64,000 nt of DNA, from positions 25,586 through 89,585 of the forward strand of contig JAAZNV010000007.1 in the NCBI GenBank assembly GCA_012798115.1. Direction: 5' to 3'. Below are positions 1 to 28,680 of this stretch, piece by piece (the stretch's first letter is position 1; every line of letters begins with the position of its first letter). The position numbers and the translations under genes are program-made. A model generated the notes under the pieces. That model was not told the origin of the DNA. It searched no databases and saw nothing but the letters and a program-made list of their open reading frames with translations. The stretch comes from a candidate division WWE3 bacterium. Its GTDB lineage: Bacteria; Patescibacteriota; WWE3; UBA101185; UBA10185.

Positions 1-784
1 ACGAACTAACCTCATTGAGATAATCTTTAATGGACTTAAAGTAGTTCTCTGGCAGTCCGATTCTTAGCGTTTTGCCACTTTGTACGTCCTCTTGGGTTCT
101 TGTGTCGTGTGATTTCCTCCAGGCTTCAAATCTTACATCTTCCCAACCTGTGTCCTTACCGTCTAAAAATCTAGCATTGCCGGCTAAGGATGTAGATATG
201 GGACTAATCATGAATAATCTGTTTAGCTTGTCTAGAGCATCGGTTATACCATTACACTCTAGAGAGAATTGAAAGGCATTTAATAAACCGACCACTGCAG
301 CATCGCCAACAAATGCTCCGTTTATAAAGTTCATATTATGACGAGTACGATTCTCATTATGAAAATTAGGCACAATCATGTACTTCTCGGTTTTTGTTCT
401 TTCAACTTTTCTTGTATTTGCCCATGGAATTGTGCCTCCTCTCCCGAGTTTAAATCCATACTTTCCAGCCTCATTTATTAATTGTGATTCCAGTTCCCTT
501 AGTTGTTTGTGCCAACTATCAAACCCCCCTTGGTGTAGGTTTACAGGCTTTGGGTGAACTTCTATACACGAAGCTCCGAGTTCTGAACCAAAGTCCTTTC
601 CGAGTTTTTCAATAATCTTCTTTTTCTCCTCATCTTTAGCAAGTATCTTTTCCCCACAAACTTCTTTGTAAATGTAAAGTTCTTGCTCTGCTCCCGCCAT
701 ACTAACTTTGTGACACGTGTTACCCCTAGGGATTCTACTAAGTTGATCTTCTGCAGCCTTTTTAAACGCACTTAACATACTCAT
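1..784 (-). CDS. hypothetical protein, N-terminal 261 aa (C-terminus beyond window edge)
   Basis: Reading frame open from ATG at 782-784 (RBS AAAGGAGAG 6 nt upstream) to position 2 with no stop, checked codon by codon; not in ORF track because no in-window stop; no family recognised. Confidence 0.5.
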   Translation of the reverse strand, partial: MSMLSAFKKAAEDQLSRIPRGNTCHKVSMAGAEQELYIYKEVCGEKILAKDEEKKKIIEKLGKDFGSELGASCIEVHPKPVNLHQGGFDSWHKQLRELESQLINEAGKYGFKLGRGGTIPWANTRKVERTKTEKYMIVPNFHNENRTRHNMNFINGAFVGDAAVVGLLNAFQFSLECNGITDALDKLNRLFMISPISTSLAGNARFLDGKDTGWEDVRFEAWRKSHDTRTQEDVQSGKTLRIGLPENYFKSIKDYLNEVSS

Positions 785-1777: not shown

Positions 1778-1792
1778 TTTGTAATCTCCTAT

Positions 1793-2082
1793 AACAAAAA
1801 TGTCCTCAAGCTCTTATCAGATTTAAATCTGATAACAACCTAAGGACGTTCTTAATAAGCGTGGTACCACCTTAGTTTATCCAATCGTCACCGATTGAAT
1901 CTCTTTAACTGCTCCGCTTGTGCGACACAGCCTATCGCTTTTACGGGCGAACCCGTTCCTAATTTTCTTAGGACAGCTCCGGAAGTGTAATTCGCTTTTC
2001 ACTATACGCTAGGTTTTCAGCGACCACCTGGTTTCTAATGTCACTAGTCTAAAGCTACTTATTCTTCCATCAAAGCTTTATA
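1793..2082 (-). promoter_or_regulatory. T-box riboswitch leader (tRNA-sensing transcription attenuator) controlling the 839..1777 operon
   Basis: Minus-strand RNA contains CUAAGG-UGGUACC-ACG...CGU-CCUUAG (helix A1 / 7-nt UGGNACC bulge / helix A2) matching T-box consensus AGGGUGGNACCGCG at 13/15; alternative terminator GUCCUUAGGUU...AGCUUGAGGAC followed by AUUUUUGUU; preceding hairpin CAAUCG-GUGA-CGAUUG (stem III-like) and a UUCG tetraloop hairpin; segment ~47% GC in ~31% GC context. Confidence 0.6.
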
Positions 2083-2088
2083 GGGAGC

Positions 2089-2117
2089 AATATATACAAT
2101 TTTAGTAGGATTGTCAA
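2089..2117 (-). promoter_or_regulatory. sigma70-type promoter for the T-box leader (TTGACA-17-TATATT)
   Basis: Perfect -35 TTGACA (2112-2117), 17-nt spacer, -10 TATATT (2089-2094) on minus strand. Confidence 0.5.
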
Positions 2118-2227: not shown

Positions 2228-3295
2228 CTAAACTGATTCTTTCCTGTCATTGTTGTTGAATATTTTATAAAGTACCAAACTCAGACCTATTAACACAAGG
2301 GAAAAAATCATACTCGCATTGACAGGTATCTTCATTAAAGGTAGTAGTATGATCTGGGAAGTGGGAATTGCTGAGGTTCCAATTAACCAAAGCGGATCAC
2401 TGCTTTTGCCATGCTTGTTGGCATTGATTGTGCTAAGTCTAGTTCCTTTAACAAAAGCCCAGAATCCTACACCGTTACTGATGGCACCTACTATTATAAG
2501 GTACCAAATGACTTTTAGATCTGGAAGGATTAAGGATGACCTTGCTAAAACCAGTGGGGTGACTAGAACAGCAGTTACAACCTCGATCACAAAAGTCAAG
2601 ACCCAGTCATCATAGTTTACATTTCCTGTTAGATAGCAGAACAAAGCTTGTGTGAAAGCAGCTATCAAACCGTATGTAATCACTAGATTATGTACTGCAT
2701 CTGTAGATTTGGTGCCAACAACATATACCACAACCGAAACTACGGCCAAAAGTACTGGTAAGATAAACTTAAAGCTTTTCCTATTAAGGTATACACTTTT
2801 TCTCCCCAGTAATACAGCTGAGATTACCATGAAAAATATTGGCCATGTGTAGTTTAATATGGTGGTAAAGGCCGCACCAATCAGTTTAATAGATTGGAAG
2901 TAAGTTACTGAGTATATGAATGGCCAAATGAGACCAAGACCAATCATTTTAAGATAATCTTTCCAATCATATTTTCTGAATTTGGACCAGCCTCCTTGGA
3001 TAGTTATTAGTATTGTGATTGCAATTACTGCTATCCAGTTAACATAGAACGTGGTTATATCTCCGTCCAAGTTTCCCAATTGCGCCAACCCAGGCACAAT
3101 CCCCCACGTTACTATTACTACAATCAATAACCATGCATAACCAGGCTCCTTGCTAGAAGATTTCTTCGTATTCACTTTACACCTCTTTTGAATTAGGATT
3201 TTGTTGTTTAGCTTGATTTGCCCTAGAAAATCATTTAACTCCCAACAGCACCTCCTTTTATCTTCTTTTATTACCATGTTTGATTTCTTAATCAA
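2228..3295 (-). CDS. multi-pass membrane protein, probable DMT/EamA-family transporter
   Basis: 355 aa, ~10 predicted hydrophobic helices after a charged N-terminal tail. Confidence 0.4.
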   Translation of the reverse strand: MIKKSNMVIKEDKRRCCWELNDFLGQIKLNNKILIQKRCKVNTKKSSSKEPGYAWLLIVVIVTWGIVPGLAQLGNLDGDITTFYVNWIAVIAITILITIQGGWSKFRKYDWKDYLKMIGLGLIWPFIYSVTYFQSIKLIGAAFTTILNYTWPIFFMVISAVLLGRKSVYLNRKSFKFILPVLLAVVSVVVYVVGTKSTDAVHNLVITYGLIAAFTQALFCYLTGNVNYDDWVLTFVIEVVTAVLVTPLVLARSSLILPDLKVIWYLIIVGAISNGVGFWAFVKGTRLSTINANKHGKSSDPLWLIGTSAIPTSQIILLPLMKIPVNASMIFSLVLIGLSLVLYKIFNNNDRKESV

Positions 3296-3557
3296 TTTTT
3301 ACCTTGTTTTGTTGCACATCTCCTTGCTTGAGTAGTAGTGGTTGAATAGTGTATTTCGATCATTTTCTGCCTTTATTTACTTAAGTTATATTCTGTTATC
3401 AAAGGGCTACTACTCTTTACTTTCAAGCAATTATATATAGGTTGTATAAAAAGTCAAATACAAACGTCAATTAAAAATACTTAATTTGCATGATTGAAAT
3501 TATTTTTATGTATAATAACTTTAATAAAAAGTGAGAAGATCTCGTTCACTCTATAAG

Positions 3558-4226
3558 ATGATAAATGTTAACGATTATAAAATTAAGATCATTGATTTAA
3601 ACACTCTAAAGCGTCGTGGAGTAATAAAAAAAGTTATAGGAACGCTCCCCAGGGAGGGTTTGACGGTAGGTTTAGATGTATGGGCAAGAAAGTCTCCAAA
3701 GGAATCATTTCTAGGACTTATTGGTATATGTAAAACGCTTACAGATAAGCCACTAAAAGTATTTGTAGATGATTTATGTGCAAGAATGGATACAGGAAGA
3801 ACTGTTGCAGAGCAGAAATACTATAATAATCTCTATAAGAAGTTTTTTATAAACCAAGGCTGCGAAGTTTATTTTAGCAGCGATGTTCTTAGTGAAAAGC
3901 AAATGGCCAGACGTATCTATAATTTTAGTACTAGATTAACGTTTAATGATTTCGTTCAATGCCTTCCGCTTGAAAAACGTGTGAACATTGAAAAGTTGTC
4001 GATTAAAGAGTGCGGTCACTTGATACTTCAACTTATGTTCTTGGATTGTATAAAGGACATTTGTGATGTGGCGATGTTCGGAGCTTTCAGTGAAGCAGTG
4101 GTGTATATGCACAGGCAAACATCAAATAATCCACTAAGTTGTGTTATTGTTCCTAAAGTGCCTAACAATTTGACAGACATAAAAGAACTCTTAGCTTCTT
4201 TAGAAAACAAGTTTACCCGAAAATAA
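3558..4226 (+). CDS. hypothetical protein (orphan)
   Basis: ORF 3531..4226 in track starts at GTG; first ATG at 3558 (MINVNDYK); TTGCAT-19-TATAAT promoter-like element at 3486-3516; no recognisable family. Confidence 0.4.
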   Translation: MINVNDYKIKIIDLNTLKRRGVIKKVIGTLPREGLTVGLDVWARKSPKESFLGLIGICKTLTDKPLKVFVDDLCARMDTGRTVAEQKYYNNLYKKFFINQGCEVYFSSDVLSEKQMARRIYNFSTRLTFNDFVQCLPLEKRVNIEKLSIKECGHLILQLMFLDCIKDICDVAMFGAFSEAVVYMHRQTSNNPLSCVIVPKVPNNLTDIKELLASLENKFTRK

Positions 4227-5013
4227 TTTTTGTAGCCGTTGGCTCATGTATATAGAAGTATCTAAGCAATTTTCTTTGATTGTTAGTAATCTCTCTCTTG
4301 TCTATATTAGAGTATATATAGGTTTTACACTTGCGTATAAACCTTAGACGCTGTTTGGAAAGTTTTAGCCCATCGTATACAAAACCGCCAAGTAGCATTA
4401 CACTGTGGTAATCTGTTAAAACGAAGTCATTATTGTGTCCAATGTGGCATCTCCAAATTAGCTTGTAACCTAGATTTAGCTTGTGTTCGACTATTGGAAA
4501 TATGTAAAGTTTCTTGTAGCCAGAAAAGTCATCATATTCCTTAACTTTGGATAAAGATTTATATCTAAACTCGTTGATTAATATTGGCGTTAAGCAAAGT
4601 GATTTTGTAAATGTTGATAGAAACATAATTTTAATGGAAAACTTATACTTGAAGAAGAGTGTGTCTGTTTGTACACAGCTAGCATCGTAAGATTCGCACA
4701 CGTTATTGTAGGCTTCCTTTAATTTGATAAATGGGGTGTCTCCAATATTTATATGTTTTTCCTTATCGTCAACAATAATGAAAAAATCCACATCACTAGC
4801 ATTCACTTTCTCTCGAAAACTTTGGTAGTTATTTGCACGTAGACAAAGAGCTAGGGAACCACCTAGTAATAAGCTGTAAGAATTACACCCAAAATTTTCA
4901 TCACAAATGTTTTTTATGTAGTTAATTTCCTTGACTAATCTAACCGAGTAAGTCTTAAGGTTTTTCAAGTTCAAATTTTTATCTGTCTCTATTATCCTGT
5001 CCAAGAAAAACAT
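4213..5013 (-). CDS. nucleotidyltransferase-fold protein (Pol-beta superfamily; LinB/ANT-like size and GS...SDVDF motif)
   Basis: 266 aa; LLLGGSLAL...ASDVDFFIIVDD resembles hG[GS]...[DE]h[DE]h NTase core as in lincosamide/aminoglycoside nucleotidyltransferases. Confidence 0.35.
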   Translation of the reverse strand: MFFLDRIIETDKNLNLKNLKTYSVRLVKEINYIKNICDENFGCNSYSLLLGGSLALCLRANNYQSFREKVNASDVDFFIIVDDKEKHINIGDTPFIKLKEAYNNVCESYDASCVQTDTLFFKYKFSIKIMFLSTFTKSLCLTPILINEFRYKSLSKVKEYDDFSGYKKLYIFPIVEHKLNLGYKLIWRCHIGHNNDFVLTDYHSVMLLGGFVYDGLKLSKQRLRFIRKCKTYIYSNIDKREITNNQRKLLRYFYIHEPTATKIIFG

Positions 5014-5023
5014 TCGTGTGGCA

Positions 5024-5051
5024 ATTATATTACCTACATTATTGATGTCAA
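5024..5051 (-). promoter_or_regulatory. consensus sigma70 promoter (TTGACA-16-TATAAT) giving a near-leaderless mRNA for 4213..5013
   Basis: -35 at 5046-5051, -10 at 5024-5029, only 10 nt between -10 and ATG, no SD. Confidence 0.45.
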
Positions 5052-5122
5052 AATAATTGGGTTAACTAATATTAATCCCATGTAATATACCTTTAACAAG
5101 GTTACCCCTTAAGGTAAGCAGG

Positions 5123-5158
5123 AACAAATAGACCCAGAAAGTTTCTAATTTCTGGGTC
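5123..5158 (-). terminator. Rho-independent terminator of tyrS
   Basis: 10-bp perfect stem GACCCAGAAA/TTTCTGGGTC followed by UAUUUGUU on minus strand downstream of tyrS stop. Confidence 0.6.
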
Positions 5159-5188
5159 CAAACGTTAAAAATAAATATCTAGAATCTT

Positions 5189-6427
5189 TTACTTTCTGTT
5201 TATCCTTAGAAAGTTGGATTTTCCGAACTTTATCAAACAGCTTTGATTTATCTCCTCTTTTGGATCTGTCACTTTTCCTTCATTTACCTTCACCGCTCCT
5301 CCCTTAACCCTTCGGCTAACTTCACTTTTTGATGGAAGGCTACCAGATTCTACTAAGATTTCATCCAAAGGCATTTTCTTTACGATATCAAACTCAGGGA
5401 TTGAACTCAGATCTTCATTTTTATTGCCCATAAATACACTTTTTGATTGTTTTTGAGCTTTTTTGGCTTCCTCTTCTCCGTGCACAACTTTAGTGACTTC
5501 ATACGCCAACGTTTTTTGAGCTTCTCTTGGATCCCCGCTCATTATTTCATTGATCTGTTCCATTGGAAGAAACGTATAGATTCCGAAGAGAGTTCTTACC
5601 ATTCTGTCATCTATCTTTTCTATATACTGGTAGAAATCAAATGGAGATGTTTTGTTGGGATCTAACCACAAAGGTCCTTTTTCAGTTTTTCCCATCTTTT
5701 CGCCACTTGGAGTGGTAAGAAGAGAGAAAGTAACTGCTTGTGCACATGCTTTGTTTCCATAGTGAGCTTTAATTAGATTAACGCCTTGGATTATGTTTCC
5801 CCATTGATCACTCCCACCAACTTGGATTTTGCAACCATATTTGTCATAAAGTATGAGAAAGTCCCAAGATTGTACAGTGGTATATAGAAATTCTAATAGA
5901 GATAAGCCTTCTCCAACTTTAAGTCTGCGATCAAAGGTTTCCATCTTTACCATCTCGTTAACAGAGAAGTAACGTGCCACATCCATCATGTAGTCGTCAA
6001 GAAAACTCATTTTCGTTATCCAATCGGCATTATTCACCATAATAGCCTTTTTCGGATCGTCAAATGATAGCAATCCCATTCTCTGAACTTGGCGTTTTAT
6101 GCACCTTCCATTTTCCTCAACCTTTTCTTCAGTTAGAAGTACTCTGGAAGATTTCTTTCCGCTTGGATCTCCTATCCTCCCAGTAGCACCACCCAAAAGG
6201 AAGATCACTCTGTTTTTGGCTTCCTGCATATGATGAAGTGCCATAACACCCATAAAGTGTCCTAAGTGTAGACTGTCAGCGGAAGGATCAAAACCATCAT
6301 ATATTGTGGTCCCTTCTCCTAACAGCTTCCTAACGGCATCCTCATCAGAAACTTGGTACTTCTCTTGACTTCCATCAGTAGTTCTTGCTATAAAGCCCCG
6401 TTGTTTTAATAGGTCATATACGTTCAT
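5189..6427 (-). CDS. tyrS: tyrosyl-tRNA synthetase (type 1, E. coli/Bacillus TyrS-like)
   Basis: HIGH motif (SLHLGH), GGATGRIGDPS, QVGGSDQWGNI, KMSKS variant KMGKT, C-terminal S4 domain. Confidence 0.9.
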   Translation of the reverse strand: MNVYDLLKQRGFIARTTDGSQEKYQVSDEDAVRKLLGEGTTIYDGFDPSADSLHLGHFMGVMALHHMQEAKNRVIFLLGGATGRIGDPSGKKSSRVLLTEEKVEENGRCIKRQVQRMGLLSFDDPKKAIMVNNADWITKMSFLDDYMMDVARYFSVNEMVKMETFDRRLKVGEGLSLLEFLYTTVQSWDFLILYDKYGCKIQVGGSDQWGNIIQGVNLIKAHYGNKACAQAVTFSLLTTPSGEKMGKTEKGPLWLDPNKTSPFDFYQYIEKIDDRMVRTLFGIYTFLPMEQINEIMSGDPREAQKTLAYEVTKVVHGEEEAKKAQKQSKSVFMGNKNEDLSSIPEFDIVKKMPLDEILVESGSLPSKSEVSRRVKGGAVKVNEGKVTDPKEEINQSCLIKFGKSNFLRINRK

Positions 6428-6498
6428 TTTTACTCCTTTCTACCATTTTACTATTTTGTTATAAAAGTTCTAGTACTTATTTTTCTTCGTTTTGTTGA

Positions 6499-6527
6499 AT
6501 ACTATATAAATTTAATTGTCTTGTCAA
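6499..6527 (-). promoter_or_regulatory. sigma70-type promoter of tyrS (TTGACA-17-TAGTAT)
   Basis: -35 6522-6527, -10 6499-6504 on minus strand, ~70 nt 5'UTR with GGAG RBS. Confidence 0.4.
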
Positions 6528-6775
6528 ATTAACTAAACGTTATACTTTACATGCACTACAGGTTGTCAGGTAAGCACACTAAACAGGCCTTATCAATTAC
6601 ACACTAATACTATCGTGTAAGATCGTAAGTCACCTGGGTTTATTTGCTAGAACTTTTCTTTACTGTAGGTGTAATGCTTTGTATACTAACGTTAAGAAGA
6701 AAAAAAACAACGTATTTCTTTATAAGGATGGAAACTGCTAGTGAGAGTACTTGTGGTTGTAGGCGGTTATGTTTT

Positions 6776-7066
6776 ATGAGTAATCTCTTTAGGAAGAAAA
6801 AAGAAAATTTTAAATGTGAAAACTGTGGACATGAAGTAAAAGGAAATGGATATACTAACCACTGCCCTATTTGCTTATATAGCAAACACGTAGATATATT
6901 TCCTGGGGATAGATTAGAAAAGTGTAAAGGTTTAATGAAGCCAATTAGTGTTGATAAAAAAGATGGAGAGTATGTTCTTATACACAAATGTATAAAATGT
7001 GGTGTGGAAAAAAGAAATAAAGTATCTAAAGAAGATAACTTTGAAGAAATAATAAAATTAAGTTAG
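6776..7066 (+). CDS. RNHCP-domain zinc-ribbon protein
   Basis: CENCGHEV...GYTNHCPICLYSKHVD...CIKCG matches RNHCP domain; start taken at internal Met (ORF track begins at 6644). Confidence 0.5.
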   Translation: MSNLFRKKKENFKCENCGHEVKGNGYTNHCPICLYSKHVDIFPGDRLEKCKGLMKPISVDKKDGEYVLIHKCIKCGVEKRNKVSKEDNFEEIIKLS

Positions 7067-7076
7067 GATCTTAATA

Positions 7077-7688
7077 TTATTCTTGTATGCTGATATCAGA
7101 TAAAAAGCCTTTAATTTCTTCATCTGAGACGTATTTGTTTTCTAAGTAATCAATTGTCTCAGAATAATCTATGTCTTGGTAGTATGAAAGTTGCTCTCTG
7201 AATAGTTTTTCATTAAACTCTTGACCAAATATTTCCTTTGCTCTTGTTGTAATGTCAGAAAATTTATTTTCTTTAAAAACAAAGAATAAATCAACGTAGT
7301 CCTTCCATTTTGCTCTTTTTCCTAAGGCAAAAGCTTTCATTGCGGAAAGAGTACTTAGATTTGGTAGTTTAATTATATTTTCAAATGTCTCAGAGTAGTC
7401 TATTTCAAACGGATATGTGAGAAAAGTAAGTTTCACATTATTTACAACAATAGTTAATTCCTCTGTATTTTCTACTAGTGTGTTTTGGATTTGGTATGAT
7501 TGCCTAATTTTGTTTCTAACTTTATCGTGATCAAAGCTCTTGTCTATGAAAAGGTCATAATCTATAGATCTTCTATGCCCAATTTGTAATGCAATAGCAG
7601 TGCCTCCCACTAAACCAAACTCACTAGAAAATGTTTGTAGTAAGGGCAAAAGTTTAATTTGTTCCTCATTTAAAACTTCTTTATGCAT
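7077..7688 (-). CDS. nucleotidyltransferase, AbiEii/AbiGii-toxin-like (DUF1814) family
   Basis: FGLVGGTAIALQIGHRRSIDYDLFI matches the GGTAL...R.S.DiD NTase signature of AbiEii-type toxins. Confidence 0.55.
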   Translation of the reverse strand: MHKEVLNEEQIKLLPLLQTFSSEFGLVGGTAIALQIGHRRSIDYDLFIDKSFDHDKVRNKIRQSYQIQNTLVENTEELTIVVNNVKLTFLTYPFEIDYSETFENIIKLPNLSTLSAMKAFALGKRAKWKDYVDLFFVFKENKFSDITTRAKEIFGQEFNEKLFREQLSYYQDIDYSETIDYLENKYVSDEEIKGFLSDISIQE

Positions 7689-24456: not shown

Positions 24457-26487
24457 CTAATTTGAGGTTATATACTTACCTTTTCTTTGTGTCAATTTAT
24501 TTTCAAGTTTAGGGTATTTTTTAAGCTTTTGGTAATATTTTTGAGCTTCAGTTTTTGCTTCTTGAAGCATATTTAAATCATTCAAGTTTGCAATCCTTAA
24601 CTTTTTAAAACCATGTTGAGATGCTCCAAAGATGTCTCCTTGTCCTCTCATTTTTAAGTCTATTTCTGCAAGCTCTATACCATTATTTAGTTCCTCAAGG
24701 TATTTAAGTCTTTTATATGAGTTTCTGGAGTTATTGCTCATAAAAGCAAAACAAAAGCCTTCTTTGTCTGATCTTCCTACCCTTCCTCTTAATTGGTGAA
24801 GGCTAGCAAGACCATATCTGTCAGCGCTTTCAATAACAATTACTGTAGCATTGGGAACATCCACTCCTACTTCAATTACAGGAGTTGATATTAATACTTT
24901 AATTTTGCTGTTTTTAAAATCATTGATAGCTTTTTCTTTTTCCTTTGACTTCATCTTTCCATGTAAAAGGCCTACAGATACTCCTTTAAATATGTTATTC
25001 CTTAAGAATTCATATTCAGCTTGAGCTGCCTTGACATTTGCAAGGCTAGAACTTTCTGATTCTTCTATTAATGGACAGACAATAAATGTTTGTTCTCCCC
25101 TATCTTTAATCCATCTATAAGCTTGTTCTCTCATTTTCTCTGGAATAACCTTTGTATTTATTTTTCTTTGTTCAAATGGAAAGTCTTTTAAGACAGATAT
25201 AGCTAAATCTCCATAAAGAGTTAAAGCTAATGTTCTTGGTATTGGAGTTGCTGTCATGGTAAGAAGATGTGGTCTAATACTTCCGTTTACTAGTTCTGTT
25301 ATTTTTCCTCTTTGTTCAACTCCAAATCTATGTTGTTCATCGATGATAATCAATCCGATGTCGTTATATGCATCTTTTGGAAAAAGAAGAGCATGTGTTC
25401 CAACTAATACATCCCATTCTCCACCTTTCCCTTTCTTACTTCCTGTTTCGATTTCTACCTTTACATTTGTTCCTTTTAAGATCTTATTGAATGTATCAAA
25501 ATGTTGATTAGCTAATATCTCAGTAGGAGCCATATACAATGTTTTTAAACCATTTAGGTAACAAACATAAGAAGCAAGTATTGCAAGAATTGTTTTTCCT
25601 GTACCAACATCTCCTTCTAGAAGTCTGTTCATGGGCATTGGTTTTTGAATATCATCTAGTATCTCTTCAAGAGCTTCACTTTGAGATTTAGTAAGCTTAA
25701 ATGGTAAGGAGTTAATTAACTTATTTAATTCTTCATAATACCCTTTTAATTTATGCCCTTTTGATTTTTCTAGCCATTCACTTTTTCTTTTTTCCACATT
25801 TAACAATTCAATAAAAAGTTCCTCAAATTCAAACCTTTTGTAGTTTTCTTTAGCTTGTTCTTCACTATCTGGAAAGTGTACTCTTTCTAATGCTTCTTTT
25901 ACTTCCTTAAAATTCTTTTCCTTCAATAGCTCTTTGGGTAGAAACTCTTCAATATTGGTTTCTGAGTTAAAAAGAAACTTTATTTTAGTTCTTAACCACT
26001 TGGAAGATACTCCTGATGTTTCTGGGTATATAGGAACAAGCCTTCCTGTGTTTATATTTTCTATTCTTTGTTTTTCCTCATCATATACAGCTTCTATTTC
26101 TGGACTAATGAAACATAATTTCTTATCAAATATTGTTACTTTTCCACTTATTAAGTAATTTTTACCAACGTTTAATGTATCTTTTATATAATGTTGGTTA
26201 AACCAAATGAGATTTAGTTCTCCTGTGTAATCCAATATTATTGCTTTTGTTATTCTTTTTCTTCCTCTTGTGTATATATTTTCTATTGACCCTAGTATTG
26301 CTTTTACTGAAATTATGTCCCCTTCCTTTAGATCTTTAATGTTTTTGAACTTAGAATAATCATTGTATCTAAAAGGTAAGTGGTATAAGAGGTCCTCTAT
26401 GGTGTATATGTCAAGATTTTCTAACAGTTTCTTATACTTTGGACCTATTTTAGGTACTGCTGAAATTGGAGATTCTACATTAATCAT
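24457..26487 (-). CDS. recG: ATP-dependent DNA helicase RecG
   Basis: 676 aa; wedge domain, Walker A GDVGTGKT, DEQH box, helicase C motifs. Confidence 0.85.
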   Translation of the reverse strand: MINVESPISAVPKIGPKYKKLLENLDIYTIEDLLYHLPFRYNDYSKFKNIKDLKEGDIISVKAILGSIENIYTRGRKRITKAIILDYTGELNLIWFNQHYIKDTLNVGKNYLISGKVTIFDKKLCFISPEIEAVYDEEKQRIENINTGRLVPIYPETSGVSSKWLRTKIKFLFNSETNIEEFLPKELLKEKNFKEVKEALERVHFPDSEEQAKENYKRFEFEELFIELLNVEKRKSEWLEKSKGHKLKGYYEELNKLINSLPFKLTKSQSEALEEILDDIQKPMPMNRLLEGDVGTGKTILAILASYVCYLNGLKTLYMAPTEILANQHFDTFNKILKGTNVKVEIETGSKKGKGGEWDVLVGTHALLFPKDAYNDIGLIIIDEQHRFGVEQRGKITELVNGSIRPHLLTMTATPIPRTLALTLYGDLAISVLKDFPFEQRKINTKVIPEKMREQAYRWIKDRGEQTFIVCPLIEESESSSLANVKAAQAEYEFLRNNIFKGVSVGLLHGKMKSKEKEKAINDFKNSKIKVLISTPVIEVGVDVPNATVIVIESADRYGLASLHQLRGRVGRSDKEGFCFAFMSNNSRNSYKRLKYLEELNNGIELAEIDLKMRGQGDIFGASQHGFKKLRIANLNDLNMLQEAKTEAQKYYQKLKKYPKLENKLTQRKGKYITSN

Positions 26488-27459: not shown

Positions 27460-28680
27460 TTACTCAACCTCAAAAAACTTTCTTTTTCCAAATTTAACAA
27501 TTGTTCCTTTAGTAAAGTCTATTAGGATATATGGATCTGTTATCTTGTTTCCATTTACTTCTACCCCGCCTTGTTCAATTACTCTTTTTATTTCGCTTGA
27601 TGATAAGTCTGGATTGTAGACTTTCATAAAGTTAATAAGAGATGCAGGTGTATCAAGTTTAAGTTTGAGAATGTCAACTTTTATAGTGGCATCTTGTGAT
27701 ATATCTTTCTTTTGAATTGTTCTTTCAAAAAATTCCTCAGCTTTTCTTGCTTCCTTTTCACCTTTTATCATTTTTGTAATTTCAAAAGCCATAAGCTTCT
27801 TGTACTTCATTGGATTATCGTCTGCCTTTATTCTTTCTTGTATGTTCCATATTTCTTCAAGAGAAACATCAGTTAAAAGTCTTAAGCCTTTTAATATTAA
27901 TTCATCTGGATAAGACATTGCTTTTCCATATATATCTTCAGCTTTGTCACTTAAATTTATTCCGTTTCCTTTTGTCTTGCTCATGGTAGCAGTATCTGGA
28001 GCTTCCATAAGTTCATGTCCTCTAACAAATTTTTCTTTATTTCTCATTACTCTTGCTAGGTTTCTACCCATTAACATATTAAATATTTGGTCATTTCCTC
28101 CAATTTCAAGATCAACATTCATAAAAACAGAATCATAGCCTTGCATCAATGGATATATAAACTCTTGAAGTCCAACAGGAGTATTGCTTTTTAATTTTCT
28201 TTGGTACAAATCTCTTTCAAGCATTTGTTGTACTGTAGTTTTAGACATAAGTTCAATGATTTCTTTAAGATTAAGTTTAGATAACCATTCTGAATTTCTT
28301 TTGAATTGTGCTGGATTTTCTCCTTCAAAATCAATTAACTGTGCTGCTTGTTTCTTCCACCCATCCATATTTTTTAATATTTCTTCTTCACTCATTATCT
28401 TCCTGTCCTTTCCAATCTCTGGATCCCCGCAAATAGCTGTAAAATCACCAACTAAAAATATTACCTCATGTCCTAGTTGTTGAAGTATTCTCAATCCTCT
28501 TATTCCCATTGCATGTCCTATGTGGAGGTATGGACCAGATGGATCAAAGCCTTGGTAAGCTCTAATTCTTTCACCTGACATTAACTTTTCTCTTAGTGCA
28601 TCTACTGATGGAACTATGGTTTCAACACCCCTAGTTAAGAATTTTTCTATCAACCTTTCGTCTTTTAGAACTTTAGGCAT
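27460..28680 (-). CDS. tyrosyl-tRNA synthetase paralog (type 2, Thermus/TyrZ-like) with C-terminal S4 domain
   Basis: HIGH (YLHIGH), VGDFTAICGDP, KMSKS variant TMSKTKG, C-terminal S4 (SSSEIKRVIEQGGVEVNGNKITDPY); S4 domain argues against TrpRS. Confidence 0.7.
   Translation of the reverse strand: MPKVLKDERLIEKFLTRGVETIVPSVDALREKLMSGERIRAYQGFDPSGPYLHIGHAMGIRGLRILQQLGHEVIFLVGDFTAICGDPEIGKDRKIMSEEEILKNMDGWKKQAAQLIDFEGENPAQFKRNSEWLSKLNLKEIIELMSKTTVQQMLERDLYQRKLKSNTPVGLQEFIYPLMQGYDSVFMNVDLEIGGNDQIFNMLMGRNLARVMRNKEKFVRGHELMEAPDTATMSKTKGNGINLSDKAEDIYGKAMSYPDELILKGLRLLTDVSLEEIWNIQERIKADDNPMKYKKLMAFEITKMIKGEKEARKAEEFFERTIQKKDISQDATIKVDILKLKLDTPASLINFMKVYNPDLSSSEIKRVIEQGGVEVNGNKITDPYILIDFTKGTIVKFGKRKFFEVE

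Follow-up and report, generated by a model that had tools for sequence, protein, structure and literature searches.

Organization of the locus

The locus described here lies in a 64,000-nucleotide (nt) stretch of DNA from a candidate division WWE3 bacterium (assembly GCA_012798115.1, contig JAAZNV010000007.1, positions 25,586 to 89,585), to which we refer as the window. It comprises a T-box riboswitch leader on the minus strand and the two genes behind it. The leader occupies the gap between two minus-strand open reading frames (ORFs), which extends over 450 nt (1778-2227), as an earlier note on this DNA had indicated. Downstream from the leader are a gene for an AstE/AspA-family zinc deacylase (gene 1) and a gene for a carboxylate-amine ligase of the GCS2/YbdK type (gene 2); upstream are a transporter gene of the EamA/DMT family and two genes, tyrS-1 and tyrS-2, for tyrosyl-tRNA synthetases (TyrRS). 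The coordinates are given in Table 1.

Table 1. Coordinates of the leader elements and of the genes in their neighborhood
Feature	Position in the window	Strand	Basis
-35 hexamer TTGACA	2112-2117	-	11/12 promoter match with the -10 hexamer
-10 hexamer TATATT, 17-nt spacer	2089-2094	-	Consensus scan
T-box leader, full-length RF00230	1839-2082	-	Rfam covariance model
Stem I	1976-2076	-	Rfam alignment and covariation
Specifier UAC (1989-1987, tyrosine) and 3' purine A (1986)	1986-1989	-	Sequence, conserved register
Stem II (GUCCUAAG...UUAGGAAC) and stem IIA/B element ACGGGUUCGCCCGU	1943-1974	-	Rfam alignment; both hairpins in the minimum-free-energy fold
Stem III (AUUCAAUCGGUGACGAUUGGAU)	1879-1900	-	Rfam alignment and minimum-free-energy fold
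Antiterminator	1840-1875	-	Sequence and Rfam alignment
Intrinsic terminator hairpin (1847-1802) and U-tract AUUUUUGUU (1801-1793)	1793-1847	-	Minimum-free-energy fold
Shine-Dalgarno AGGAGA, 7 nt before the ATG at 1777	1785-1790	-	Sequence
Gene 1, AstE/AspA-family zinc deacylase, 312 aa	839-1777	-	PF24827
Gene 2, GCS2/YbdK-type carboxylate-amine ligase, first 261 of 399 aa, cut by the window start	1-784	-	PF04107
EamA/DMT-family transporter, weakly YddG-like (aromatic amino acid exporter), upstream of and not behind the T-box	2228-3295	-	Pfam/NCBIfam matches
tyrS-1, bacterial TyrRS	5189-6427	-	TIGR00234, 331.5 bits
tyrS-2, second TyrRS paralogue, upstream of recG	27460-28680	-	TIGR00234, 324.4 bits
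recG	24457-26487	-	Neighbor of tyrS-2

Anatomy of the T-box leader

The whole window was scanned with Rfam 15 at gathering thresholds, which yielded a single T-box, the remaining matches being three tRNAs. The T-box match (RF00230) runs from 2082 to 1839 on the minus strand and covers the model from end to end (1-219 of 219), with a score of 112.4 bits, above the gathering score of 93, and an E value of 4.9e-24. The promoter proposed for this leader in the earlier note, TTGACA and TATATT separated by 17 nt, is present at 2117-2089 and matches the consensus at 11 of 12 positions; its TTGACA hexamer is invariant across four orthologous loci in the leader alignment. The first Rfam-matched leader position lies 7 nt past the end of the -10 hexamer, and the transcription start is predicted near 2082.

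The Rfam alignment places the UGA of the kink-turn region of stem I at 2071-2069 and the S-turn elements of the specifier loop, AGUA and GAA, at 2059-2056 and 1993-1991, respectively. The AG bulge, AGAAA (2036-2032), and the distal loop, GGUCGCUGAAA, align to the conserved AGAGA and GGUGNNA of the model, and the helix flanking them covaries. The antiterminator has the architecture that had been read from the sequence: helix A1 is formed by CUAAGG (1875-1870) and CCUUAG (1845-1840), the T-box bulge UGGUACC has 7 nt (1869-1863), and helix A2, formed by ACG (1862-1860) and CGU (1848-1846), encloses an 11-nt loop. The overlapping terminator described alongside it was likewise recovered: the hairpin GUCCUUAGG...CUUGAGGAC at 1847-1802, followed by the U-tract, forms in the minimum-free-energy fold and overlaps the 3' half of the antiterminator through the common stretch CGUCCUUAG. 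Two further hairpins mentioned in the earlier note, CGGG-UUCG-CCCG and one with a GGUGA loop, correspond in the RF00230 alignment to stem IIA/B and stem III. The 306-nt leader has a folding energy of -106.4 kcal/mol (z = -6.6), a value reached by none of 100 shuffled sequences. The segment from the antiterminator to the U-tract folds at -34.7 kcal/mol, with formation of the terminator, as against -5.6 kcal/mol for the antiterminator alone.

Conservation of the leader

Related loci, designated by the letter L and a number, were drawn from metagenomes, exact-match contigs and GTDB species representatives. Relatives of the deacylase are few: a search of 5.8 billion proteins gave 22 matches, each from a Patescibacteria-type source, with one labeled Woesearchaeota. 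Upstream of the orthologous operons, including those of orthologues with protein identity as low as 35-39%, we found full-length RF00230 matches scoring 58-109 bits: 109 bits in L047 and L048, 104 bits in L006, L007 and L008, 99 bits in L009, 92 bits in L012, 85 bits in L010, 82 bits in L038, 60 bits in L045 and 58 bits in L041. The match in L011 is partial (36 bits) and ends at the contig end, and the T-box motifs of L043 and L044 were detected by pattern search alone. Those of the more distant deacylase loci that were scanned gave no T-box at E ≤ 1.

The bulge sequence UGGUACC is present in all related leaders except for one UGGUAUC and one UGGUAAC. In a seven-sequence alignment, 92.9% of the cells in the four helices of stem I are paired, versus 32-48% in slid controls; 14 of the 20 pairs have changed on both sides, and none of 500 shuffles equaled this result. 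In the antiterminator, 93% of the cells are paired and two pairs of helix A1 covary (eight leaders); this near-invariance is consistent with the predicted structure, but less informative than stem I. An equivalent terminator with its U-tract has been kept in all orthologues. In nine leaders folded, the segment with the terminator gave -17 to -57 kcal/mol, versus -5 to -10 kcal/mol for the isolated antiterminators, with the exception of the insert-bearing leader of L041 (-24.9 kcal/mol). Folds that include the terminator are thus far more stable than the isolated antiterminator, the arrangement expected if uncharged tRNA must stabilize the latter. The reading of the gap as a T-box, put forward in the earlier note, stands on these grounds: an RF00230 score above threshold, a covarying stem I, and antiterminator and terminator pairings retained in homologous loci.

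Several of the related leaders have features of their own. The L010 leader (211-441; 84.6 bits), also a tyrosine T-box, has a stem I of about 73 nt, with a plain hairpin above the specifier loop and neither the AG bulge nor the distal-loop platform, which together normally dock the tRNA elbow. In the leader of L041 (4786-5000; the same locus as L055), the antiterminator loop is enlarged by about 95 nt, inserted between UGGUACCACGG and CCGUCCUUGAG, and the terminator is unusually long; Rfam misplaces the 3' end of this 58-bit match. In L010, L038, L041 and L006, the start codon abuts the U-tract (GGGC/GGACGG-UUUUUUU-AUG), without a separate Shine-Dalgarno sequence, and the ribosome-binding site may be provided by the G-rich 3' side of the terminator, which would combine transcriptional with translational control. 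The window leader differs from these four in having a separate AGGAGA.

Specifier codon and tRNA specificity

On its 3' side, the specifier loop has the sequence GAAU-UAC-A, which is followed directly by the helix GGAAG/CUUCC. In orthologous leaders this helix is GGAAA/UUUCC, the closing pair having changed from G-C to A-U, and this compensatory change fixes the end of the loop. By the usual rule (TBDB, PMC7778990), the specifier consists of nucleotides 2-4 of the loop, counted from its 3' end; it can therefore be located in this covarying stem I as UAC, a tyrosine codon, and the tRNA sensed would be tRNA-Tyr(GUA). The motif GAAnUAC(A/G/C) is found in the same register in all 13 leaders with a readable specifier region; L012 and L045 have a C, instead of a purine, after UAC. 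The tRNA-Tyr(GUA) genes adjoining the operon all have A73, matching UGGU, from which this discriminator base had been predicted. On L005, a 99%-identical contig from the same species, two such genes come straight after the operon, just past the point at which the window ends, and tRNA-Tyr genes are similarly placed in eight related loci.

Against this assignment, it should be said that the cognate tRNA-Tyr genes lie outside the window, being seen on L005, and that the triplet one base downstream from the specifier is in every leader a threonine codon too (ACA, ACC or ACG). We therefore considered a T-box answering to tRNA-Thr, or to both tyrosine and threonine tRNAs, with the overlapping ACA as its specifier, a reading with which the C after UAC in L012 and L045 would also agree. 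The U preceding AC is, however, invariant, which a threonine reading leaves unexplained, and the covarying closing pair sets UAC in the canonical register (PMC7778990). The third base of ACN is A, G or C and would call for a different isoacceptor in each species, whereas such variation is as expected for the purine slot. The operon adjoins tyrS and tRNA-Tyr genes everywhere and contains tyrS in L006 and L041, and no thrS or tRNA-Thr gene lies nearby. The threonine frame was rejected on these grounds, and we regard it as extremely unlikely.

The riboswitch has, in sequence and predicted fold, each testable defining feature of RF00230, and the best explanation of the region 2117-1793 (minus strand) is, with high probability, a canonical class I (transcriptional) T-box specific for tRNA-Tyr and served by its own near-consensus promoter. 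The switch should follow the established T-box mechanism, which we infer here from sequence. Stem I would present the codon UAC to the GUA anticodon, with the distal platform docking the tRNA elbow. If the tRNA-Tyr is uncharged, its free A73-C-C-A end would pair with the UGGU of the UGGUACC bulge and stabilize the weak antiterminator, so that RNA polymerase would read through; if it is charged, the stronger terminator (1847-1802 with its U-tract) would form and transcription would stop before the genes. The mechanism itself is ordinary.

The regulated genes

The identification of the first regulated gene as an AstE/AspA-family zinc deacylase, made in the earlier note, was borne out by domain, zinc-site residues and fold. 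The product of gene 1 matches PF24827 (AstE_AspA_cat) with 84.6 bits (cut-off 25). Its putative zinc ligands, H41, E44 and H124 (HxxE...H), are invariant in 17 homologues, together with R81, N91, R92 and E192, and its motifs HGDE, LNRxFPG and DxH align to those of PDB entries 2qj8 and 3cdx and of DoeB. The AlphaFold model (predicted local distance difference test, pLDDT, 92.8) is closest to the N-acetyl-diaminobutyrate deacetylase DoeB (6twm; template modeling, TM, score 0.84), followed by uncharacterized family members and the cyanophycin dipeptide hydrolase CphZ (8ein, TM 0.79) and, farther away, by aspartoacylase and aminoacylase-3, including the N-acetyl-L-tyrosine complex 3nfz. The protein falls below all NCBIfam equivalog cut-offs (70.5 vs 402.7 bits for DoeB, 31 vs 157 for MpaA and 27.8 vs 180 for aspartoacylase) and, as judged by such comparisons, is not an orthologue of any characterized member tested (DoeB, AstE, aspartoacylase and MpaA).

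The second gene had been taken for one encoding an unknown protein of more than 260 aa; it encodes a 399-aa ligase of the GCS2/YbdK type, as indicated by PF04107 and a fold match. The full-length gene is present on the 100%-identical contig L001 (9408-10607), and the exact GCS2 sequence has been deposited as a hypothetical protein from a bacterium of candidate division WWE3. The partial protein in the window matches PF04107 with 28.3 bits (cut-off 21), and precomputed annotation assigns the same family to the full-length protein. The best PDB match of the model (pLDDT 96.7) is YbdK (1r8g, TM 0.66-0.74), and 1tt4 and the plant glutamate-cysteine ligase 2gwc were also among the best structural matches. 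Across 47 homologues, a number of glutamate and arginine residues are invariant. The scores lie far below the equivalog cut-offs (22 vs 371 bits for PRK13515, 21.5 vs 176 for TIGR02050 and 16.3 vs 463 for the plant glutamate-cysteine ligase), and gene 2 would accordingly not be classed as an orthologue of YbdK or of glutamate-cysteine ligase.

The folds of the two proteins imply that the operon joins an amide-cleaving with an amide-forming enzyme. The earlier note had suggested an amino-acid salvage pathway based on deacylation; a pathway of this kind, if it consisted of deacylation alone, would leave the ligase unexplained.

Genomic context of the T-box operon

tyrS-1 lies 3.4 kb upstream from the T-box, and no RF00230 match was found at E ≤ 1 in the region 3200-7200 surrounding it, in agreement with the statement in the earlier note that tyrS has no T-box. 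That note spoke of a single tyrS in the window; there are two. The products of tyrS-1 and tyrS-2 are 28% identical and differ in their motifs (HLGH/KMGKT and HIGH/TMSKT, respectively). tyrS-2 also lacks a T-box: the approximately 85 nt between the upstream ORF and its ATG are filled by a terminator and a -10 box, and the only T-box in the whole-window scan is that described above. The TATACT box 8 nt before the tyrS-2 ATG suggests a leaderless mRNA. The TyrRS-recG order of tyrS-2 is also found in L041, where a T-box and GCS2 stand in front. The retention of two TyrRS paralogues in a small genome of the candidate phyla radiation (CPR) is comparable to that of TyrS and TyrZ in Bacillus subtilis.

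L007-9, L038, L043, L044, L045, L047 and L048 share the order tyrS, eamA, T-box, deacylase, GCS2, tRNA-Tyr, and the EamA gene lies between tyrS and the T-box in nine related loci. In L006 the T-box drives the deacylase gene and then tyrS, and in L041 GCS2 and then tyrS; both are textbook layouts of tyrS autoregulation into which new genes have been inserted.

The two tRNA-Tyr(GUA) genes on L005 lie after the ligase gene, at 6279-6361 (83 nt, without encoded CCA) and 6490-6575 (86 nt, with CCA), and the pair is conserved in this position in L043, L044 and L047. The paired genes have identical anticodon and variable arms and differ in their acceptor and D arms. Each of the L005 genes has a plausible extended -10 element of its own (TGgTACAAT and TGcTATACT), and we therefore do not assume co-transcription with the T-box operon in the species of the window. 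The retention of two tRNA-Tyr isodecoders and two TyrRS genes in a reduced genome is puzzling.

The arrangement is different in L045 (3593-4051), in which the U-tract is followed after 9 nt by a tRNA-Tyr gene (3955-4040) and, after a further 10 nt, by the deacylase ATG, leaving no space for a promoter. In the unrelated L012 (1829-2258), a tRNA-Tyr gene is likewise included in the T-box-controlled transcript. We know of no description of a T-box controlling the gene for its own ligand tRNA. The L012 tRNA-Tyr(GUA) (2147-2221) has 75 nt, a 5-nt variable loop, C1:G72, A73 and an encoded CCA; this is the archaeal/eukaryal style rather than the long-arm class II of bacteria, yet the gene lies directly behind a bacterial-type T-box and terminator. 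Archaeal-type TyrRS genes are present in the related loci L027, L036, L039, L050-52, L054 and L056.

In the window, the tyrS-eamA adjacency kept in the orthologous loci is broken by two convergent ORFs, of 231 aa (3531-4226, plus strand) and 266 aa (4213-5013, minus strand). Neither has a match in Pfam, NCBIfam or PADLOC, and by eye the 266-aa ORF contains a nucleotidyltransferase-like GGS...DVDF motif. A few kb beyond the inserted ORFs, L001 has an AbiEii gene. The pair may be a small mobile or defense insertion.

Survey of GCS2 loci

A survey with a 12-sequence alignment of the ligase identified 17 GCS2 loci in GTDB species-representative genomes, from Patescibacteria, Microgenomates, Levyibacteriota, metagenome-assembled genomes (MAGs) labeled Saccharibacteria and Gammaproteobacteria, and one Nanobdellati archaeon. 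In 16 of these loci, the distance from GCS2 to a TyrRS gene is 5 kb or less, the exception being at a contig end, and nine of the 17 have a tRNA-Tyr gene. The linkage spans three types of TyrRS: those of tyrS-1 and tyrS-2 and the archaeal/eukaryal type (NF006330, 366 bits).

Several layouts were distinguished. In the first, GCS2 is combined with the AstE/AspA deacylase, and in L024, L030 and L042 the order is a pyridoxal phosphate (PLP) decarboxylase, TyrRS, deacylase and GCS2. In L037 (6001-9427), L049, L053 and L058, GCS2 is followed by an enolase-superfamily (MR_MLE_C) enzyme and a class I amidotransferase/Peptidase_C26-like amidase, in that order, near TyrRS; in NCBIfam, this enolase-superfamily protein is matched best by o-succinylbenzoate synthase (low-GC type) and N-acetyl-D-Glu racemase. 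In seven loci, GCS2 stands alone beside TyrRS. A further layout, without GCS2, consists of a distant deacylase (32-36% identity) followed by a GNAT acetyltransferase (L018, 3761-4492; L025, 4912-5496; L027, 1491-2072); in L027, the gene after GNAT encodes an archaeal-type TyrRS. A gene of the prephenate dehydratase family lies beside the cluster in L037 and L038. ORFs beside the distant deacylases in L010, L014 and L020 were considered as divergent GCS2 proteins and rejected (hhalign probability ≤4%). T-boxes are confined to the layout of GCS2 with the AstE/AspA deacylase and to the L041 type; no T-box was found at E ≤ 0.1 in the loci combining GCS2 with an archaeal TyrRS, in the GCS2-enolase-amidase loci, or in L057 and L059.

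These layouts bear on the possibility that the T-box is essentially a tyrS leader and that the deacylase and ligase genes are passengers, brought behind it by operon rearrangement and without a function in relation to tyrosine. The T-box operons of L006 and L041, which end in tyrS, and the proximity of tyrS in the window (3.4 kb upstream) would fit such a history. In the window and nine related loci, however, the T-box controls the deacylase and GCS2 only, with tyrS upstream and without a leader, and GCS2 adjoins TyrRS in 16 of 17 species. Hitch-hiking does not account for a linkage that extends over three TyrRS types, several gene orders and lineages without a T-box, and we consider this explanation very improbable.

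Possible function of the operon

A T-box specifier is a label, readable from the sequence, stating that the genes downstream matter when one given tRNA is uncharged. The tyrosine label falls here on two enzyme families without an assigned function, and the tight TyrRS neighborhood agrees with it independently. The enzymes of the operon probably act on tyrosine or a tyrosine derivative, and the position of their genes beside the TyrRS gene in many tiny uncultured bacteria of this kind points to what may be an undescribed tyrosine-handling pathway.

As a specific scheme, we tentatively propose a cycle of N-acylation and deacylation on tyrosine that would raise the supply of L-tyrosine to TyrRS when the charging of tRNA-Tyr drops. 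The amino group of a tyrosine species would be joined by the ligase to an acyl group, for which the side-chain carboxylate of glutamate is the most plausible candidate, and the deacylase would then free L-tyrosine. The acylated intermediate would permit a step closed to free tyrosine, either the epimerization of D-tyrosine to L-tyrosine or the intracellular retention of imported tyrosine. Epimerization is suggested by the related loci in which an enolase-superfamily enzyme is inserted between the ligase and the hydrolase. The replacement of GCS2 by GNAT, and of the deacylase by an amidase, suggests that acylation followed by deacylation is the conserved logic of these clusters.

Some of the results weigh against this scheme. 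Because both proteins score far below every NCBIfam equivalog cut-off, a substrate cannot be transferred from known enzymes. The co-induction of enzymes that form and cleave the same bond would be futile without an intervening step, and the WWE3-type operon encodes no epimerase, nor was one found in the 64-kb window. The seven loci in which GCS2 is paired with TyrRS have no hydrolase nearby, which implies that the deacylase is not what forms the conserved core. Searches of the window for an enolase-superfamily racemase, a C26 amidase, GNAT, prephenate dehydratase, a PLP decarboxylase and Dtd (the last with an E. coli sequence as query) gave no matches, which is weak evidence in so short a stretch as 64 kb.

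The enzymes might, more narrowly, serve chiefly to handle D-tyrosine, which would be acylated, epimerized and deacylated, turning a toxic amino acid into usable L-tyrosine. Near TyrRS in four independent loci (L037, L049, L053 and L058), GCS2 is accompanied by an enolase-superfamily enzyme and then by a C26-type amidase, and the NCBIfam matches of the enolase-superfamily protein, given above, fit this idea. The deacylase-GNAT pairs match, for their part, the acyltransferase-racemase-deacylase layout of the N-succinyl-amino-acid racemase pathway, reportedly described by Sakai et al. in 2006. The window genome has two TyrRS paralogues, and D-tyrosine is hazardous to TyrRS, B. subtilis keeping a T-box-regulated TyrZ that discriminates against it (PMC9437257). 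The clusters of the WWE3 type and their close relatives lack an epimerase gene, however, and a T-box senses uncharged tRNA rather than D-tyrosine; the stereochemistry of a substrate is, moreover, not legible in a sequence. A chief role in D-tyrosine handling seems unlikely.

The enzymes might also make and turn over a tyrosine conjugate not destined for TyrRS, such as a soluble storage or shuttle form exchanged with a host via the EamA transporter, or a C-terminal tyrosine tag on a peptide or protein. Pairs of a ligase with an AstE/AspA-family hydrolase are known, as for cyanophycin synthetase and CphZ, the latter being a structural neighbor of gene 1, and NAT8L and aspartoacylase form another storage or shuttle pair for an amino acid. 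The conservation of the EamA gene beside the operon and the seven loci with GCS2 and TyrRS and no hydrolase would also be consistent with a conjugate. Induction by uncharged tRNA-Tyr is, however, the signature of genes that raise tyrosine availability, whereas conjugate synthesis would use up tyrosine during starvation, and no gene for a target protein or peptide is conserved in the cluster. We judge a conjugate of this sort still less probable than a dedicated D-tyrosine system.

Returning to the acylation-deacylation cycle, the clusters may be considered together as a hitherto unrecognized tyrosine-handling module widespread in the reduced genomes of the CPR and reaching archaea of the DPANN type. 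GCS2 would N-acylate L- or D-tyrosine, and an interchangeable hydrolase (the AstE/AspA deacylase or the C26 amidase, sometimes with an enolase-superfamily epimerase between ligase and hydrolase) would regenerate L-tyrosine, in a chirality-correcting or trap-and-release form of salvage that co-evolved with TyrRS; in L012 and L045, the T-box would control its own ligand tRNA-Tyr. This broader view is speculative, and we hold it to be possible rather than probable. The tyrosine label and the TyrRS neighborhood, for their part, turn two "hypothetical" families common in CPR and DPANN genomes into a concrete, testable hypothesis concerning tyrosine supply or protection from D-tyrosine in ultra-small, probably auxotrophic cells.

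Comparison with known systems

The leader shares with those of B. subtilis tyrS and tyrZ the specifier loop with UAC and a purine in stem I, sequence motifs matching the AG bulge and the distal loop, the stems II, IIA/B and III, the antiterminator with its UGGN bulge, the competing intrinsic terminator and, as predicted here from the sequence, read-through in response to uncharged tRNA-Tyr. It differs in its targets, which are neither an aminoacyl-tRNA synthetase nor a biosynthetic enzyme nor a transporter but an uncharacterized deacylase-ligase pair, and in its host, a member of WWE3 (Patescibacteria) in which neither of the tyrS genes in the window has a T-box. In the surveys consulted, tyrosine T-boxes are described as controlling tyrS/tyrZ, genes of tyrosine biosynthesis and that of phenylalanine hydroxylase (PMC2494555), with no deacylase-ligase pair among their targets. 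Our search of the full-text literature, which does not extend to subscription journals, retrieved no report of T-boxes in Patescibacteria, CPR or Saccharibacteria, and nothing relevant on a T-box with an aspartoacylase or a ligase-deacylase pair. The kind of riboswitch is canonical, and the element would be detected by any Rfam-based annotation pipeline; the regulon and the lineage are what is unusual.

Gene 1 shares its fold, the HxxE...H zinc site and LNRxFPG with DoeB/EutE (N-acetyl-L-2,4-diaminobutyrate deacetylase) and CphZ, which cleave an amide on an amino acid with a free alpha-carboxylate, as the gene 1 product presumably does. It differs from them in sequence (15-22% identity) and in context, being accompanied by TyrRS and tRNA-Tyr rather than by ectoine or cyanophycin genes. 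Gene 2 likewise shares the fold of YbdK and plant glutamate-cysteine ligase, at 14-16% identity, and its family keeps invariant acidic and arginine residues, but it has TyrRS and tRNA-Tyr genes as neighbors, with no cysteine, ergothioneine or polyamine genes nearby. The pairing of a ligase with an amide hydrolase recalls EgtA/EgtC and PuuA/PuuD, which attach glutamate and then remove it.

The N-succinyl-amino-acid racemase pathway consists of an acyltransferase, an enolase-superfamily racemase and an L-specific deacylase, which together convert D- to L-amino acids. This three-step logic resembles that of L037, L049, L053 and L058, and the deacylase-GNAT pairs are also similar. In the loci described here, by contrast, acylation would depend on ATP, via GCS2, and not on succinyl-CoA; the hydrolases are of different families, and the window operon lacks a racemase.

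The surveys of T-boxes consulted list the phyla Firmicutes, Actinobacteria, Chloroflexi and Deinococcus-Thermus and a few Deltaproteobacteria (PMC2494555; TBDB preprint), to none of which the WWE3 host belongs. The leaders described here place canonical T-boxes in Patescibacteria. Some proposals group CPR with Chloroflexi and other Terrabacteria, among which T-boxes are thought to have arisen, and this placement fits such a grouping. Among the GTDB MAGs with a GCS2-TyrRS cluster of the CPR type, L051, L054, L055 and L056 are titled "uncultured Gammaproteobacteria bacterium" and several others Saccharibacteria; for automated assemblies, such taxonomic titles look unreliable.

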